NCBI GenBank assembly: GCA_963846575.1
Contig: CAWJWJ010000002.1
Coordinates: forward strand, 864,001 to 928,000
Source: an uncultured Nitrospiraceae bacterium
Lineage (GTDB): Bacteria; Nitrospirota; Nitrospiria; Nitrospirales; Nitrospiraceae
Reading direction: 5' to 3'
Length of the DNA: 64,000 bases
Part shown: positions 37,427-48,066 of the stretch, piece by piece
Position numbering within the stretch: the first letter of the stretch is position 1
Layout: each line of letters opens with the position of its first letter
The notes under the pieces: generated by a model
Told to the model about the DNA's origin: nothing
What the model saw: the letters and a program-made list of their open reading frames with translations, nothing else
The model's database searches: none
Position numbers and translations under genes: made by a program

Positions 37427-37870
37427 TCAGGGAGACTTCATTTCCAGCCGCACCCGGTCGATGGACCAGCGGAGGTCCTTCAATGGAAGGTTGTGCCCAT
37501 CCAGCGCCTCGACTTCGATGATGACTTGGGGGGTGCGTTCACGGCCTCCGGTGATCGTCTTCAGAGCCTGCGTCACGTCCAGGCGAATGAGGGGCAGGCG
37601 TCGTGGCTCCGACATGGTTGGTCGCGCCGCCACGATGCCTGCCGAGCCCAGGACCACGGTCTGGTGCCGGTCCGTTACGCTGATCACGCGAAGCTTGAGA
37701 GGTTGATCTCCCGGAACAGTCACTCCCTCCAACACAAGGTGAATCCTGCTCGCGTCCGAGGATGCCGGCGGCAAGGCCAGGGTGAACCGGGGATTTCCTT
37801 CATCGGCATGAACCGGCATGCAAAAGCTCGCGATCAGGAACAGCGTGGTGAACGCCACTTGTCTCGTCAT
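37427..37870 (-). CDS. Exported protein resembling the C-terminal (KFDV-like) domain of polyphenol oxidases
   Basis: Sec signal (VHA-D); LVLEGV..LKLRV..LGSAGIV..IRLDVTQAL..SIDRVRLE pattern; ATGA overlap with the PPO stop. Confidence 0.65.
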   Translation of the reverse strand: MTRQVAFTTLFLIASFCMPVHADEGNPRFTLALPPASSDASRIHLVLEGVTVPGDQPLKLRVISVTDRHQTVVLGSAGIVAARPTMSEPRRLPLIRLDVTQALKTITGGRERTPQVIIEVEALDGHNLPLKDLRWSIDRVRLEMKSP

Positions 37871-39303
37871 TTGTCCTCGCGTTCCACCTCCGCGACTGTG
37901 AGATGGACGTCCTTCGCTCGCACGGGAATCACCGTGCGAGTTTGAGTCTTGTCCGTTCGTTCTACCAAAGCAAGCCGCACAGGGCCTTGCATGCCGCTTA
38001 ATGCATCGAGCATTGGCAGGGACAGATTCATGGCCACGTTCCGAGCCTGTTTGGAGGTATGGCGTCCTTCCCGATCGCTCAGGACGACCGGGACCGTCCC
38101 CAGATAGCCCTTGCTGCCTGGACCCTCGTCAGCCTTGGCTGCCTCCGGCGTGGCATACAATCGATAGACCGCACTCTTCTTCAATGGCAAGGAGAGCGCA
38201 GTCAGGTGGAGCCGCGCCCGTCCCCCCTGTTCCAGCATCTTCACGATCTTATCACGCGTAGCGCGGGCCACCGTCACCGTGTTGCTGATGCGCCAATCAG
38301 TGCGGATCACTATCCAGTCCAGGAGGCAGGGCAAAATCTCAAAGAACCGCGAGGGGCCATAACTGTATCGCAACTGGTTTTCGTGGTTCAGCACCTGTGC
38401 CGCCGTAATCGAACGCCAGACTTTATTTTCATCGAAAAAGTTCCAGGTCAGATTGAGGAAGGCGCTGTCGGTGGAGTTCGTGTGGCTCGAGGAGGCCTTG
38501 TTCCAGTCGGACCAGATCTTGTCCACGTTGGCATGGTGGGCGTAAAACACGGGATCCTTGCCTGCTGAGTCGAAGAACCCCATGTCGCCGCCCACATCGA
38601 CATGTACGGAGCCGTGCGGTGCGCCCTCGGGGATGCCGCTGCCTCCGGCCGTTCCGCCGAACTCGGCGAACGTTCCGGCGTTGAGCGCCGCGTCCATCAC
38701 AGTGTCTCCCACATCTTCGTCCGGAATCACGTCAGTCGGGCTCATGGTTCGAGTGCCGTTCCACAGTGGATTGCTGCCATCGTTGGGAGACGTGTACCCG
38801 CCTGGAAGGGTGCGATGGGCCGGACTGTCCCAATCCCAGTAAGGGAGCCGGAAGTTCATATCGCCGATGAGTTTGCCGAGTATCCGTTCATGAAAATACA
38901 GGTAGGCCCGGTGCCATGCAAAAAACTGCCAGGAGAAATGCACCTGCGTACCCTCGCCACAATACCAGCAATGGATGTTCGCCTGGCGTGTGAACCCTCG
39001 CGGATCGGCGGGGTCGCTCGTGTCCAGGGCGCGCATGGCCTGATAGGCCTCCTTTAATTTTTTGAGTTCATCGGCGCCGAGGGTCGAGGCCGGTCGTCGA
39101 GGCTGTATGATGCGGCAATCCTTTCGCCACCGTTTCGCCGTGCCGGGATTCCCGGGCGGCTCACAAACGGCCAGGACCGATTGCGGTAGCGCCAGGCCTG
39201 CGAACAGGCTCACACCGAGTGCACCTGCGCCAAATCCGAGTTGGCGCAGGAATGCTCTGCGCGACGACATACCTGCGTTAGGGTTGTGTGTACCGGTGGA
39301 CAT
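37867..39303 (-). CDS. Tat-exported type-3 copper polyphenol oxidase/tyrosinase, plant-PPO-like
   Basis: SRRAFL Tat motif; CuA HCWYC..QVHFSW..WHRAYLYFHERIL; CuB PHGSVH..DMG..DPVFYAHHANVD; GGAGG RBS. Confidence 0.92.
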   Translation of the reverse strand: MSTGTHNPNAGMSSRRAFLRQLGFGAGALGVSLFAGLALPQSVLAVCEPPGNPGTAKRWRKDCRIIQPRRPASTLGADELKKLKEAYQAMRALDTSDPADPRGFTRQANIHCWYCGEGTQVHFSWQFFAWHRAYLYFHERILGKLIGDMNFRLPYWDWDSPAHRTLPGGYTSPNDGSNPLWNGTRTMSPTDVIPDEDVGDTVMDAALNAGTFAEFGGTAGGSGIPEGAPHGSVHVDVGGDMGFFDSAGKDPVFYAHHANVDKIWSDWNKASSSHTNSTDSAFLNLTWNFFDENKVWRSITAAQVLNHENQLRYSYGPSRFFEILPCLLDWIVIRTDWRISNTVTVARATRDKIVKMLEQGGRARLHLTALSLPLKKSAVYRLYATPEAAKADEGPGSKGYLGTVPVVLSDREGRHTSKQARNVAMNLSLPMLDALSGMQGPVRLALVERTDKTQTRTVIPVRAKDVHLTVAEVEREDK

Positions 39304-39394
39304 TGACCGACCTCCTCTGTGGTTGGATTGAACGTGAATGGCCGACGTGCAGGAAGATCTTCCTCGCTGGCACGCGTCGGACCAATGGAGATGC

Positions 39395-39410
39395 ATCAAT
39401 AAGCGTGCCT
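39395..39410 (-). promoter_or_regulatory. Possible sigma-54 promoter upstream of the PPO
   Basis: Minus strand AGGCACGCTTATTGAT; good -24 box, -12 reads TTGA instead of TTGC. Confidence 0.3.
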
Positions 39411-39708: not shown

Positions 39709-41187
39709 ATGCCAGAGTCTCTTTCGCCCGGAATCTACGTCCCTGAAATCCAGGCCGGAAGCCAGGCGATCACAGGTGTGGCGACTGGCACGGGGGGATT
39801 TCTCGGCATCGCCGAGCGTGGGCCGACAGTGCCGACTCTCGTGTCGAGCGTTGCTGAGTATCGCGCAATGTTTGGAGACTACGTGATGGATGGCGCGCAG
39901 GACCGTTACTTGACCTACGCCGTCGAGGGCTACTTTCAAAACGGGGGGCGGCGCTGTTATGTCCAACGGGTGTGTGGAAGAGGGGCCGCGGCGGCCGGCG
40001 CGACGGTCTCCGGGAAGCTCAGGGTTTCCGCGGTTGGGCCTGGAGCCTGGGGAAATCGCATTGCGGTGGACATCCTACCGGCGGGGTCGCGCCATCTGTT
40101 CGGACTCACGGTGAGGTATTGGGGTCCCCATACCATCCACCCGGGCGAAGCCACTGTCCGCGAAGAGTACGCCCATCTATCGTCGGACGAAGCGTCGCCG
40201 GACTTCTATGTGAAGAGGGTCAATGGCACGTCACGTCTGGTGAGGCTTGAAAGGGCGGGCAGGGGCGGTCGTCCGGCAGCCGCCACGGAACGATGGTTGT
40301 TTCGAGGGAGGGACGGCGGGGCCTGTGCCGACAGTGACTGTCAGGCGGCCCTGGATCTCCTTGGGCAGGTGGATGAGATCGCTCTAGTCTGTTGTCCGGA
40401 TGAGCCGGGTTTCCCATCCGTCACGGGGCAGCTGCTGGAGCACTGTGCACGCCTCAAGGATCGATTCGCCATCCTGCAGGCTCCGCTGTCGGTTCCCGAC
40501 CTGCTGCATCACCGGCCTCCACGTGATTCGCGCTACGGGGCCTATTACCTGCCCTGGGTGCGCGTCAGGCATGCCATGAATGGCCGGGAAGTACTCGTTC
40601 CACCGGGAGGGCACATCGCGGGTATCTATGCCAGGACGGACCAGGAGCGAGGAGTGCACAAGGCTCCCGCGAATGAAGCGGTTCGTGGTCTGCTGGCCGA
40701 TCCGCTGGATCCTGAGCGAGGACTAGCCCTCCGGATCACTCAGGCGCAACAGGAAGCGCTTCATCCGCAGGGAGTCAATCTGCTCCGGTATTTTCCGGGG
40801 AAAGGAGTCCTCCTGTGGGGGGCGAGGACAATGGCATCGGATCCGGAATGGAGGTATGTGAACGTCCGGCGGTTGCTCATCTTCGTCGAAGCCTCCATCA
40901 GAAAGGCCATCGGATGGGTGGTCTGTGAGCCCAATGAGGAGCCGTTGTGGGCGACGCTGCGGAGCAGCGTCGGTAATTTCCTCACGGAGTTGTGGAGAGC
41001 CGGCATGTTTCAGGGACAAACTCCGGATGAAGCGTTTTTTGTGAAGTGTGATCGAACGACGATGACCCCAGCCGATCTCGACCAGGGCAGGCTCGTTCTG
41101 GTGATCGGCATTGCTCCGATCAAACCGGCCGAATTTGTCGTCTTTCGAGTCGGACAGTGGGCCGGAGGATCCGACCTGACCGAATGA
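39709..41187 (+). CDS. Contractile tail sheath protein (phage/eCIS type), orphan
   Basis: SPGIYVPEI, YFQNGGRRCY, GIYARTDQERGVHKAPANE, WGART..WRYVNVRR, APIKPAEFVVFR. Confidence 0.93.
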   Translation: MPESLSPGIYVPEIQAGSQAITGVATGTGGFLGIAERGPTVPTLVSSVAEYRAMFGDYVMDGAQDRYLTYAVEGYFQNGGRRCYVQRVCGRGAAAAGATVSGKLRVSAVGPGAWGNRIAVDILPAGSRHLFGLTVRYWGPHTIHPGEATVREEYAHLSSDEASPDFYVKRVNGTSRLVRLERAGRGGRPAAATERWLFRGRDGGACADSDCQAALDLLGQVDEIALVCCPDEPGFPSVTGQLLEHCARLKDRFAILQAPLSVPDLLHHRPPRDSRYGAYYLPWVRVRHAMNGREVLVPPGGHIAGIYARTDQERGVHKAPANEAVRGLLADPLDPERGLALRITQAQQEALHPQGVNLLRYFPGKGVLLWGARTMASDPEWRYVNVRRLLIFVEASIRKAIGWVVCEPNEEPLWATLRSSVGNFLTELWRAGMFQGQTPDEAFFVKCDRTTMTPADLDQGRLVLVIGIAPIKPAEFVVFRVGQWAGGSDLTE

Positions 41188-43756: not shown

Positions 43757-44191
43757 ATGGGAGAGGTCGATACAGCCCCGGAAGTTGCCGCCAAGGTCAT
43801 CGAAGATCTGACGGCGTTGGAGGTGGATCCGGCCAAATGCGAGCGTCTTTTTAAGGCCGCGCTGGTGCAGTCCCAATCGGGCACCACCTATCGCATGCTG
43901 GCCAAGGTGGCACAGACTGGAAAGGTGGATCTCGTCCACTACGGCTGTGCGCTGGATGCGGATGGGAACCCAACCACGAAATGGAAGATCAGGCGCATCC
44001 TCGAACAAAAGCCTGAGCGGTTTGACAAAGAGCTTGAGGCGATCAAGCAGGGAGTCGCGGACGATGGTGAGGTTGTGCAAGGCGCATGGGTGCATGATAT
44101 GACCGGCCTCCCGGACGTCGCCGCACAGGGCAAGAGTCTGGACGAATGGTTTCGGACTACGATCGCGGAGCTTCGCAAGAAACCGAGCTAG
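43757..44191 (+). CDS. Hypothetical protein
   Basis: GGAGG RBS, typical codon use, 144 aa. Confidence 0.7.
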   Translation: MGEVDTAPEVAAKVIEDLTALEVDPAKCERLFKAALVQSQSGTTYRMLAKVAQTGKVDLVHYGCALDADGNPTTKWKIRRILEQKPERFDKELEAIKQGVADDGEVVQGAWVHDMTGLPDVAAQGKSLDEWFRTTIAELRKKPS

Positions 44192-44226: not shown

Positions 44227-45519
44227 TCAAAAAATCATCGGCGGTGAGCCCGGCGGCAGGGGCGACGGGCCGGTTGCGGCCCGTGGTGAGGCGGTGATGA
44301 CGACCGTCAGCCGGCGATGGGCCTCCCGTAGCGACCGCTCAACATCCTCCGGGGTATTCCCGCGTGCCAGGAGAAATCCCAGATAGCGCGTCCCTTCCGG
44401 GAGCGGGACCAGTTCGTCACCGGGCGTTGCCGTGATCGTCAGTTCCTCGACCCCCGGCACGGCCTTCGCTTGACTCTGTCCCCGTACCTCGTGGAGCCGG
44501 CCCCCGTAGGGAATAGGAAGCATCATCACGCCCGCCGAGCGCGCTTGCCTGGTGAGAGCAGGAAGCGGCATCCGTAACGCGTGGCGGAGGATCAGCTCTT
44601 CGAGCGACATTCCGGCGGCGAAGTCCAGCGTCCTGGAGCAGCGTCCGCCGATGGCTCGCGCCGCCATCTCAATGACCCACACCCCCTCCTGATTCACCCG
44701 GAATTCGGCATGTACCGGTCCCTCCCGGAGATCGAGAGCTTCGGCTGTCCGGCCGGCACAGGTGACAATGTCCTGCTGTACGTCGGCCGCGAGACGAGAG
44801 GGAGTCACATAGATCGTCTCCTCGAAGTAGGGGCCGTCGAGCGGGTCGGGCTTGTCGAACAGCGCGAGAGGCTGGAGGACTCCGTCGGTGAGCAGGCCCT
44901 CGAGTGCAAACTCCATCCCGGGTACAAAATCTTCGACAAGCACCCAGCGGGCCTGTTCATCGGCTGCGGTCAGACCCAAGGTAGTGAGGAGCGCGCCTAT
45001 CCGACGGAACGCACGAATATATTCCTCCTCGTCATTCGCGCGAATGACCCCGCAACTGGCGGAGAGGATCAGCGGCTTCACGACGCAGGGATAACGCACC
45101 TGCCGGGCGAACGTCGTCGGATCGCCATCGAGCGGGAATACGGCATGCAGGGGGACGGCAATGCCCCGGGCCGAGAGCAACTCGCGCATCCGGCGCTTAT
45201 TGCCCGCGGCGGTCACGGACGCGATGGAGTTGTGGGGTAACCCGAGCGCCTCTGCCACGACCGCGGCGGTGACGGCGGTGGCATCGTTCACGCCGATCAC
45301 CGCATCGATCGCGTGGCGGCGGGCGAATTCCAGGGCGGTTCGTGCGGCTGCTTGCGGATGCCGGAGATCCAGCGTCAGGACATTGCCTGACAGGTCAGGC
45401 AGCGCCTCGTCAGCCTCCTCCGTCCCGATGGTCACGGCGACATCAGTGCGGCGGGCTGCCTCGAGGAATGCCTCCGCTCGATACGTTCGCGTCGGCAGGA
45501 GAAGCAGAAGTCTCGACAT
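44227..45519 (-). CDS. ATP-grasp domain protein (L-amino-acid ligase-like)
   Basis: NKRRMR, YPCVVKP..SASCGV, LVEDFVPG.E, HAEFR..VIEMAARAIGG. Confidence 0.88.
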   Translation of the reverse strand: MSRLLLLLPTRTYRAEAFLEAARRTDVAVTIGTEEADEALPDLSGNVLTLDLRHPQAAARTALEFARRHAIDAVIGVNDATAVTAAVVAEALGLPHNSIASVTAAGNKRRMRELLSARGIAVPLHAVFPLDGDPTTFARQVRYPCVVKPLILSASCGVIRANDEEEYIRAFRRIGALLTTLGLTAADEQARWVLVEDFVPGMEFALEGLLTDGVLQPLALFDKPDPLDGPYFEETIYVTPSRLAADVQQDIVTCAGRTAEALDLREGPVHAEFRVNQEGVWVIEMAARAIGGRCSRTLDFAAGMSLEELILRHALRMPLPALTRQARSAGVMMLPIPYGGRLHEVRGQSQAKAVPGVEELTITATPGDELVPLPEGTRYLGFLLARGNTPEDVERSLREAHRRLTVVITASPRAATGPSPLPPGSPPMIF

Positions 45520-45634
45520 CGTTCGCGACACCGGTGAATCGTGCAACGTCTCTCGTTGCGGATAAGCCTATCTGACGACTGGCCTTGAGCCGGTTCGAAA
45601 AGATCCTGCTCCGGCTCATGTCAGGAACGGCCTG

Positions 45635-46351
45635 TCACGAAGGAAGCGCGGCGGCTGCGCGGGCTTTGTGAAACGCCTCTAACTGACGATTGGCCTCGGT
45701 GATGACGCCTAATTGTTGCACCACGGCGGCCACTCTCTCGCCGGGTATCGCGTAATAGCCCTCATCATCTCCGAGTCCGGTATAGACGCGGTTGCCGATA
45801 CAACCAAAACTGGTGGCCGTCCGTCCCGACTGCAATGATTCCGGCAGCACGGCGCAGGTCGGCCGGCCCATCGTCGCGCCGCCGCCGGCCACGCCCGCGG
45901 CCTGTGCGGCTTCCGCCAGCAGCATCAGTTGCTTGACGGTCCCGCGAACCAGGACCACGTCGGGCGCGAAGCTGGCCTTGGTGAGTGGCGCATAGATGGC
46001 CACATGAAACGGTTTCTGTCGCCGCGGGATCATCGGAATATCTGCCATCGTGAGATACTGCAGGCCTACCATGGTCTGTACCAGGCCGTTCAACTCAGTC
46101 GCCACCTGCGGCGGTAGCTCCACACCGTGGGTATGGGCGCCGACCGGACAGGTATAGTGATCCGTGGCTTCCGTGTAGAAGACCTGTCCCTCTGCCGCCA
46201 ATTTCCAGTACCCGCAGCCCGCCGGCGCCGGCGTGGCGACATGCGGAATGCCGACCGGAGCGGCATCGCGAAACGCGATGGCGACGGCCGGTACCTGTAA
46301 ACCCAGAAGCTCTTGTATCTGCCTGCCTTGTGTCGTTGATTCAGCGTTCAC
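45635..46351 (-). CDS. DUF169-family Cys-containing protein
   Basis: PAVAIAF, GCGYW, CPVG, PDVVLV, PTCA, SFGCIGNR. Confidence 0.8.
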   Translation of the reverse strand: MNAESTTQGRQIQELLGLQVPAVAIAFRDAAPVGIPHVATPAPAGCGYWKLAAEGQVFYTEATDHYTCPVGAHTHGVELPPQVATELNGLVQTMVGLQYLTMADIPMIPRRQKPFHVAIYAPLTKASFAPDVVLVRGTVKQLMLLAEAAQAAGVAGGGATMGRPTCAVLPESLQSGRTATSFGCIGNRVYTGLGDDEGYYAIPGERVAAVVQQLGVITEANRQLEAFHKARAAAALPS

Positions 46352-46546
46352 CGGTCGTTCCCCTCTCTCCTGTATGTGACTCCATCCGAACGTGTTTGTT
46401 CCCGCTGTGCGCAGAAGTCGCGCATGAAGCTTTGCCTGAATCCACGTCAGACCAACCGGGATCCGTTCTCCTGAGTCAGTCTGTTACTCGACTCGTGCGC
46501 CTGCCGGAAGTGGAAGCGGAGCCGGCCATCTCTGGTCGGCACGCCG

Positions 46547-48066
46547 TCATATTTCCCCATGCCCTTTCGTGACCAGCGGTCTGAATTGCCGGCTCGTCGG
46601 CTCGGCACAACAGAACCATGATTCGGTCAGGCGAGGCGGTTTCTGACGGTCAGTCTGGCGCGCGATGGTCCGGGTCGTCGGGCGTGGGGGACGGCCTGCC
46701 GTCTCCTCCGCCGCCGCCCTGATACGATGAAAGATCAACAGGGCATCATCTTCGGCTTTCGCGCCGGCCTCGACGATGGCGTTCACCGCCTGATGGAGCC
46801 GATCCATCCGCTCATCCGGGTGTGTCCATACATATTGAAATGCAGCCTGATCCAACGGCCCGAGGAACCGCCGAACATCGGAATTCGTGAGCAGCGCCGA
46901 TCCGGGCGGAATCAGCAGGCGAATACTTAATTGGACGGGGTCGGTCGCATCGATCAGGTCATGTGCCTCCAGCATATCCAGCATATGAAGGTAATCATCC
47001 AGACTGGTCCATGGGGTGAACGCCACCAGTGAGGGACGCAACGAAAGGCCGGCTTCACGCAGGATGCCGACTGTCGTGATGATGTCAGCCTCTGTGTGCC
47101 CCTTATGGAGTGTTTCCAGCACAGGGTTACTGAAGGACTCCACTGCGGAAATCACGAAGAGGCATCCGTGCGCGCTCAGCTCAGGGATCAGGGATTGCCG
47201 CTTCAGCAGGTGCTCGACCTTGGCGGTGACATCGAAGGTCAGGGACGGAAACTCCGCATGCAGTGCGCGAACGATACTCATGGAGTGGCCGGGGCCGTTG
47301 AAAAAATCAGGGTCGCCGAAGGTGATGTGCGTGGCGCCCGCTCGCACCTGGCGTCGAATATCTTCCAGGACGACGGCCTCCGGGACGAGGACGAAGCGCC
47401 CGTCATAGACCGGGACGATCGGGCAGTGGAGACAATGGTGGAGGCATCCGCGACTCGCCTCGACATAGCCGACCAACCGTTCCCTGCCGTGGTGTTCGAG
47501 CCGCGCATACCGGTCCAACATCGGCAACCCGCTCCGACTCGGTATCGGCTGTGAGGGACTCGAGGTCGTGGACTTGTAGACACGCTGCAGCGAGGGCTCG
47601 GTGATACGCCCCGGTGAACTGACTCCCTCGAGATGACCGATCGGCTGCCCGCGCTCGAGTGCCTCGATTAACGAGATCAATGGCAGGTCGTATTCGCCGC
47701 CCACCACCGAATCGGCCAGGTTTTGAAGGAGATATTCCGCATTGATGGAGGCGTACAACCCGTAAAAACAGATGTGGCTGGAGGGATTGATCTTGCGGAT
47801 CAGCTCGGCGACCCGCACCCCGAGCCGGAGCGCCGTGTGCATGGGCACCGAGATGCCGACGAACCGAGCTGTTTGAAAGGCTGATTCGTCGATGTTGTCC
47901 ACTGCGATGTCGAGGCCGACCGGGGCCCATCCCCCTGTTCGAGAAAGCCGATCGGTTGGGCGATGCCGAGGGGTTGATGGCCCAACTCGTAGCAAGAGAC
48001 GAGCATGATCGCGCCCGGTTGTCTCAGGTCCCGCCACTCTGCTGGGTTGTCCGCACTGCGTCCCAT
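46547..48066 (-). CDS. CUAEP/CCAEP-tail radical SAM protein (ArsL-like), apparent -1 frameshift at about 47933
   Basis: N-terminal LVSCYELGHQP in one frame, then SVPMHTALRLG; EASRGCLHHCLHC (CxxxCxxC); ITFGDPDF; C-terminal WFCCAEP; one G missing from a G-run joins the frames. Confidence 0.85.

Follow-up and report, generated by a model that had tools for sequence, protein, structure and literature searches.

What do three adjacent genes of an uncultured Nitrospiraceae bacterium make together? The genes encode a radical S-adenosylmethionine (SAM) enzyme with a CCAEP tail (46547..48066), a DUF169 protein of 238 residues (45635..46351) and an L-amino-acid-ligase-type ATP-grasp protein of 430 residues (44227..45519). 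They lie in a window of 64,000 nucleotides, the whole stretch of DNA analysed here (assembly GCA_963846575.1, contig CAWJWJ010000002.1, positions 864,001 to 928,000). A first-pass annotation, made from the letters alone, had described them as co-oriented and proposed that they produce a metalloid- or heteroatom-containing amino acid and ligate it into a small peptide or onto a carrier. All three genes are present on the minus strand, separated by 195 bases (radical SAM/DUF169) and 115 bases (DUF169/ATP-grasp), but a fourth gene inherited together with them had been overlooked, a convergent orphan of 144 residues on the plus strand (43757..44191). We conclude that the cassette is real and co-inherited, and that its core is an undescribed two-enzyme pathway.

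The co-inheritance was observed among 41 genomes, the cassette genome and 40 relatives, the closest named relatives being Nitrospira and Nitrospiraceae records. The radical SAM enzyme scored above its cut-off in six of these genomes, and a seventh has it divided between two contigs; the ligase, DUF169 and the orphan were found in exactly those seven but not in the remaining 34, which supports the co-conservation of the trio. Because related genomes are not independent samples and neighbouring genes travel together, this co-occurrence shows one cassette, not four separate proofs. Beyond Nitrospirota, the radical SAM enzyme and the ligase form the core. Among the best 80 loci of the 560 in our locus survey, the ligase was in view at 47 and was encoded elsewhere in 26 of the 33 remaining genomes (G047, G051 and G052 among the 26 are unpublished genomes, as is the ligase-only G096), so that 73 of the 80 carrier genomes have the ligase. 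Of 151 Acidobacteriota genomes drawn evenly, 25 had the radical SAM enzyme and 29 the ligase; both occurred in 24, often unlinked, and a single genome had the radical SAM enzyme only. One protein, P0376, fuses the ligase to a CCAEP radical SAM enzyme in a single chain. The identical distribution over seven of 41 relatives, the 24 Acidobacteriota with both enzymes and the fusion support the functional link that the first-pass annotation had assumed, and the ligase probably acts on the product of the radical SAM enzyme.

The radical SAM gene was identified by Pfam Radical_SAM and by NF040546, the model of the CUAEP/CCAEP-tail radical SAM family, which it matched with 625.3 bits against a curated cut-off of 500; the family assignment made at first sight is supported. 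The cluster-binding motif CxxxCxxC is present as CLHHCLHC (47423..47446, minus strand), and its three cysteines are invariant in 86 homologues. The WFCCAEP tail with its vicinal cysteines (46598..46618, minus strand; E482, W484 and C486 invariant in homologues) is also present, yet it is near-terminal rather than terminal because 16 more residues come after it. At the second tail position TGA was found in 60 of the 80 loci and a Cys codon in 19, with one not seen, the family being one that includes selenocysteine versions. The cassette genome carries the Cys-Cys form. Since no SelD exceeded the cut-off in G000, G003, G029 and G032 (it is present in the CU carrier G075) and no tRNA for selenocysteine was called in the cassette genome, a selenium product is unlikely in the cassette organism. 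The available part of one source terms the CUAEP family uncharacterised and discusses the CU motif as suggesting heavy-metal interaction (10.1101/2022.07.06.499078). Our literature search, with most subscription journals and bioRxiv supplements outside its scope, returned no description of a radical SAM-ligase system, nor of a pairing of this family with the ligase, DUF169, YggX or NfuA. One further member above the cut-off, at locus L196 in genome G094, has a match that stops at model position 437 and lacks an in-frame CUAEP tail; its genome contains the ligase and NfuA.

Is the gene intact? A G-run near 47933 had been suspected, and the assembly does have a break there. In a model scan of the radical SAM gene, NF040546 positions 1-25 were matched in one frame and positions 27-466 in another. 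The N-terminal 44 codons (47935..48066, minus strand) hold the pre-break frame, with 37 of 44 residues equal to the intact G003 orthologue, and the main frame of 462 codons (46547..47935, minus strand) gives the 625.3-bit match. A DNA alignment with 7 relatives located the break in the G-run at 47931..47935 (minus strand), which is one base shorter than in the intact relatives, and a contig of a 93%-alike relative (run X1) has one extra base at this run. Taken at face value, the frameshift would mean that the gene recently became a genuine pseudogene and that the cassette no longer works in this strain, a reading that is silent on the intact relatives. It stands in the assembly, none of the near-identical short contigs spans the site, and there are no strain reads over it. 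We nevertheless regard a pseudogene as quite improbable. Among 180 orthologues compared with G003, nine were flagged for a frame change, two of them as tandem-paralogue artefacts, leaving seven with the radical SAM gene included, so that about 4 in 100 genes tested in this assembly show frame breaks. The seven include purA, with two single-base deletions and a single blastn match in the genome, and the likewise frameshifted hppA (C1:6657-8091 and C2:2457112-2459176). Read over both frames, all of the 80 family-conserved columns are kept in the radical SAM protein, and the ratio of nonsynonymous to synonymous substitution rates (dN/dS) against G003 is 0.17. Because other genes are broken too and the constraint is kept, the frameshift is probably an assembly error, short of demonstrated since no strain reads cover the site; a confirmed inactivating frameshift is what the first-pass annotation had named as a refutation.

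Which reaction might the enzyme catalyse? Its relationship to ArsL, stated in the first-pass annotation, took the form of a sister clade. We built a quick maximum-likelihood tree of 47 rows, comprising 5 ArsL-family rows, 35 CUAEP rows and an outgroup with six other B12-type radical SAM rows; row L023 is a wrongly picked paralogue that was placed with the outgroup and was also included in the consensus count. In this tree the ArsL/RCCLKC and CUAEP enzymes formed one clade (SH-aLRT support, 99), in which ArsL was sister to CUAEP and not nested within it (supports 99 and 94). Identity to ArsL is 32-37%, and 49 of the 90 CUAEP-conserved positions are common to ArsL, 16 of those 49 also occurring in the outgroup. 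Both enzymes have the same domain layout, the CxxxCxxC motif and vicinal cysteines close to the C-terminus. The cassette enzyme differs in staying under the cut-off of the ArsL model NF040542 (306.8 against 450 bits) and in having WFCCAEP with two cysteines instead of RCCLKC with three. A PDB sequence search found no ArsL-family structure. ArsL converts SAM into methylthioadenosine and a 3-amino-3-carboxypropyl (ACP) radical and forms a C-As bond; its RCCLKC tail is required for As(III) use, phosphorus analogues are not substrates, and its reconstitution used SAM, a reductant and As(III), with cobalamin not named (10.1101/2024.02.01.577332). As far as the accessible part of a second source goes, arsenic is bound by the ArsL tail, with the electrophile suggested to be an Fe-ACP species (10.64898/2026.04.29.721666). 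By analogy, SAM cleavage of the ACP type appears reasonably probable for the cassette enzyme.

The alternative is a canonical or cobalamin-dependent reaction, in which a 5'-deoxyadenosyl radical or a methyl transfer makes the ligase substrate and the tail is a redox or metal arm. The B12-binding-like N-domain noted earlier does give a Pfam match, albeit a weak one below the cut-off (PF02310, 18.6 bits on the truncated frame and 28.9 on full-length relatives; cut-off 32.1), there are weak matches to many B12 methylase models, and an identity of 35% is no guarantee of the same reaction. Every one of the methylase matches, however, is below 40 bits, far under the cut-off, compared with 307 for ArsL. 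ArsL itself has the same domain layout and a reconstitution that names no cobalamin, and where the outgroup has a GG motif, both sister clades have GLYA/GQxA instead. This alternative is therefore unlikely in our view.

The likeness of the ATP-grasp protein to L-amino-acid ligases was borne out by three Pfam domains, ATPgrasp_N, ATP-grasp_4 and LAL_C2, all above their cut-offs, and by the catalytic set K148, E272, E284, R288 and G291 (the conserved Lys, Glu, Arg and oxyanion Gly). The three-domain layout and the catalytic residues are those of BL00235, BacD and RizA/RhiM, BL00235 being the closest solved relative (3VOT, E 3e-35). Unlike these L-amino acid ligases, the cassette ligase scores far under the BacD and DdaF cut-offs, possesses its own FDKPDPL-GP-FEE loop and has an invariant Cys294 in the motif R-x-I-G-G-x-C, present in 70 of 70 orthologues. 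In the alignment to BacD, Cys294 corresponds to Met334, a residue we presume to have a role in that enzyme, and Gly292 to position 332, which puts Cys294 two residues past Trp332. PMC6920838, in the part available to us, lists Trp332 among the residues of the binding pocket. Cys294 close to the substrate pocket would suit a thiophilic side chain. Methionine itself is an ACP group on a heteroatom. The products of BL00235 are Met-Gly and Met-Met, according to the accessible part of its description. The cassette also differs from dipeptide-antibiotic clusters in having no exporter.

The reading that we favour, at a probability of roughly 0.3, is an ArsL-like ACP transfer to arsenic followed by dipeptide ligation. 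The radical SAM enzyme would cleave SAM in the manner of ArsL and attach the resulting ACP group to a soft heteroatom that the Cys-Cys tail binds, most likely trivalent arsenic. The amino acid so formed, resembling glutamate or methionine, would then be coupled by the ligase to another one, giving a dipeptide that would stay inside the cell. DUF169 may serve the radical SAM step as a metalloid or iron-sulfur (Fe-S) carrier, and in other phyla YggX, NfuA or IscA may keep the radical SAM cluster loaded. As the tail offers two thiol or selenol ligands against three in ArsL, R-As(III) that already carries an alkyl group would be as good a fit as arsenite. Arsenic is favoured because of the sister enzyme ArsL, the vicinal thiols, the ligases found in arsenic islands, and the HgcAB-like and MerB links described below; once ACP transfer is granted, we put arsenic as the acceptor at about even odds.

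The arsenic-island ligases come from plasmid loci of the ArsL family, four of five examined having an ATP-grasp ligase gene inside arsenic gene islands. The four, on plasmids of Alicyclobacillus (L133:2019-11538), Priestia (L135:2249-9441), Pantoea (L136:5893-12947) and Bacillus thuringiensis (L137:1037-10017), carry an RCCLKC ArsL-family gene with an L-amino-acid-ligase-type ATP-grasp gene and a CobW-like GTPase gene, aquaporin in three, and major facilitator superfamily, arsM and ArsN/GNAT genes in part. From their gene content they look like clusters for an arsinothricin-type peptide. We rejected orthology between their ligases and that of the cassette, since the identity of 20-25% is lower than the 24-33% for unrelated plasmid ligases; with Cys294 also absent, the pairing of ArsL with a ligase is parallel and not due to shared descent. 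A separate protein, P0389, fuses ArsN2-like, ArsM and ArsL parts in a single chain.

Could the cassette itself be an arsinothricin cluster? It is not, as the first-pass annotation had already supposed from the lack of an adjoining arsM, arsN or exporter. Compared with the arsQML arsinothricin cluster (PMC8552651, of which part was available), the cassette has no adjacent arsM, arsQ or arsN, its radical SAM enzyme does not reach the ArsL cut-off, and its partners are a different ligase, DUF169 and, elsewhere, Fe-S proteins. In the whole genome arsQ and arsN gave no match with the queries used, and arsM lies on the other contig. There, the ars operon (C1:144920-152318) comprises arsR, arsM, acr3, arsC, a second arsM-like gene and then a radical SAM gene, which we take to resemble ArsS.

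Several observations weigh against the arsenic reading. The usual neighbours of the two enzymes are YggX, NfuA and aconitase, not arsenic genes: over 119 loci we found an ArsB-like permease in four (under the cut-off, one of them in the unpublished G047) and an arsM-like gene in two, and none of arsN, arsQ, acr3, arsC and aquaporin at E 1e-10. ArsM showed no co-distribution with the cassette, exceeding the cut-off in two of seven carriers and in 16 of 34 non-carriers, and neither an exporter nor an acetyltransferase accompanies the cassette. The tail lacks the third cysteine of ArsL and is preceded by a 60-residue insertion, and the missing Cys294 and low identity of the ligases beside ArsL count on the same side. 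In seven Acidobacteriota genomes with split enzymes, which are perhaps close kin, NfuA lies by the ligase and not by the Fe-S enzyme. Finally, in five Acidobacteriota the ligase is present while no radical SAM enzyme was detected; in four ligase-only Acidobacteriota, a looser threshold revealed no member of the radical SAM family.

If not arsenic, what would the acceptor be? The earlier interpretation, otherwise partly supported, had missed the Fe-S proteins YggX and NfuA, which elsewhere are the commonest kind of partner and would fit sulfur. In the 80 loci the neighbours include YggX in 42, NfuA in five and aconitase in 19, in several arrangements and phyla, and in 22 of the 24 two-enzyme Acidobacteriota YggX or NfuA lies within 3.4 kb of either enzyme (within 350 bases in 20 of the 24). 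IscA stands beside one Gammaproteobacterium locus and a SufR-like regulator at another locus. The same ACP chemistry could thus act on sulfur, present either as a tail persulfide or as cluster sulfide that NfuA replenishes; the dipeptide would then be a housekeeping thiol or iron ligand that aids Fe-S repair alongside YggX and NfuA. The single copy and the absence of an exporter fit such a role. Pseudomonadota are typical glutathione users, and in 300 drawn Pseudomonadota genomes the radical SAM family was not found apart from the seed. Lipoyl synthase has its sacrificed cluster restored by NfuA, according to the title of a work cited in PMC8593673.

Other results fit a sulfur metabolite less well. 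The bacillithiol gene bshC was less frequent in carriers (11 of 24) than in non-carriers (18 of 24). The gshB gene exceeded its cut-off in three of 80 genomes, all of them carriers, and is present in two ligase-bearing genomes. Hence the product does not simply replace the known thiols, and we rejected an exclusive replacement of glutathione or bacillithiol. Moreover, 34 of the 41 relatives do without the cassette, yet neither gshB nor bshC was detected in the 19 tested. In the cassette genome yggX lies away from the cassette, and it is present in 40 of the 41 relatives regardless of the enzymes, for which reason YggX was rejected as a dedicated partner. ACP on sulfur is homocysteine, a compound that cells can obtain at lower cost. 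A sulfur-based Fe-S-support metabolite is nonetheless a close rival to arsenic, doubtful on its own but not by much more than the arsenic reading.

Two kinds of locus stand beside these results as separate observations. Alphaproteobacterial members with a CC tail and without the ligase are located behind a linalool-dehydratase-like gene (L048:1452-6450 and L069:6131-9290); L048 additionally has a peroxiredoxin and a SaoD/DsrE gene, and both genomes contain gshB or a gshB fragment. In Chloroflexota (L024-L036, L119, L124 and L126) an Fmt-like formyltransferase gene, under the cut-off, is divergent from yggX. The Fmt-like gene/yggX arrangement lies by the radical SAM enzyme or ligase in 11 of the 80 loci and also by several unlinked ligases.

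Soft metals other than arsenic appeared in four contexts. At three loci (L081:6730-12168, L085:7917-12198 and L200:5977-12975) a CU-tail radical SAM gene and DUF169 are followed by a CpaM methyltransferase and an HgcAB-like fusion, and P0252 fuses a CCAEP radical SAM enzyme to MerB. L081 also holds MerT-like and DF-family genes. These links, the Cys-Sec tail in 60 of the 80 loci, the published remark on heavy metals and the position of DUF169 beside Nitrospina hgcA, seen in the available part of 10.1101/648329, are consistent with ACP transfer to mercury, antimony, selenium or tellurium for detoxification or scavenging. We hold this to be improbable, because there are only these four contexts, none with an established ligase (it was not found in the genomes of L081, L085 and L200), and the cassette genome has no SelD above the cut-off.

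What do the two remaining genes contribute? DUF169 (PF02596, 86.8 bits; minus strand) was said to carry several Cys motifs, which resolve into four invariant cysteines, C46, C68, C166 and C184, together with an invariant H65. It was present in 17 of the 80 loci, while a search of 30 further carrier genomes failed to find it in 21, and is thus an accessory gene tied to the radical SAM enzyme rather than to the ligase. The first-pass annotation had proposed it as a thiol-based substrate carrier, which would be a putative role. In one cluster of 153 members, of which 40 were read, DUF169 is fused behind the CCAEP tail in eight of 15 listed members, which could be the loss of a stop codon in one lineage. 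Because DUF169 occurs together with YggX or NfuA in seven of its 17 loci, it is not a strict substitute for them. Its structure model has a predicted local distance difference test score (pLDDT) of 94; a fold search gave no Foldseek match at E 0.001, and VIA returned weak thiolase-like rows with a best Z of 5.0. The orphan has no match in Pfam, NCBIfam or Atlas. Nine additional genomes were tested; eight yielded no orphan, and the ninth is a Nitrospirales record. The H61-Y62-x-C64 motif of the orphan is invariant in an alignment of 63 sequences. Its structure model (pLDDT 82) gave no clear fold match, with WGR-like rows at a best Z of 5.4.

The orphan is convergent to the ligase in Nitrospirota, and in Acidobacteriota a small protein, YggX, takes the same orientation. 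Both enzymes might accordingly take YggX, NfuA or the orphan, each a small partner protein, as their substrate, much as Dph1/2 put ACP on elongation factor 2. The Dph1/2 system with Dph3 is similar in its ACP radical chemistry and its small iron-protein helper, and differs in its unrelated fold, for which homology is not expected, and its protein substrate. We find protein modification very improbable, since the partners are mutually unrelated and interchangeable, LAL_C2 is a domain of the small-molecule-ligase type, and yggX exists without the enzymes.

Placed in a wider frame, and tentatively, we picture a widespread, chromosomal pathway of two enzymes in soil Acidobacteriota, Chloroflexota, Methylomirabilota, Myxococcota and Nitrospirota in which an ArsL-type enzyme armed with selenocysteine or cysteine and a ligase with a cysteine pocket make an unseen heteroatom dipeptide, organoarsenic or sulfur, that would work intracellularly with Fe-S repair proteins, DUF169 and the orphan being new carriers. 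Within the literature covered, release of the ACP arm of SAM is reported for ArsL alone among the CxxxCxxC radical SAM enzymes. The sister family of ArsL is much commoner and mostly of the selenocysteine form, with an estimated 2700 or so pattern-matching stretches and 25 of the 151 Acidobacteriota. The family lends itself to direct tests, since it has a defined partner ligase and a Cys-Cys version whose expression needs no selenium machinery. With arsenic as the acceptor, soils would contain a large route to organoarsenic peptides that has gone unrecognised; with sulfur, the carrier phyla would possess an unknown Fe-S-support metabolite.

Promoter and terminator scans of the cassette gave hits at chance level only, and an Rfam search of the region gave zero matches. 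Two further genes of the window were noted from their translations only, a tyrosinase-like gene with a twin-arginine-type leader (37867-39399, minus strand) and a lone phage-tail-sheath-like gene (39709-41187, plus strand).

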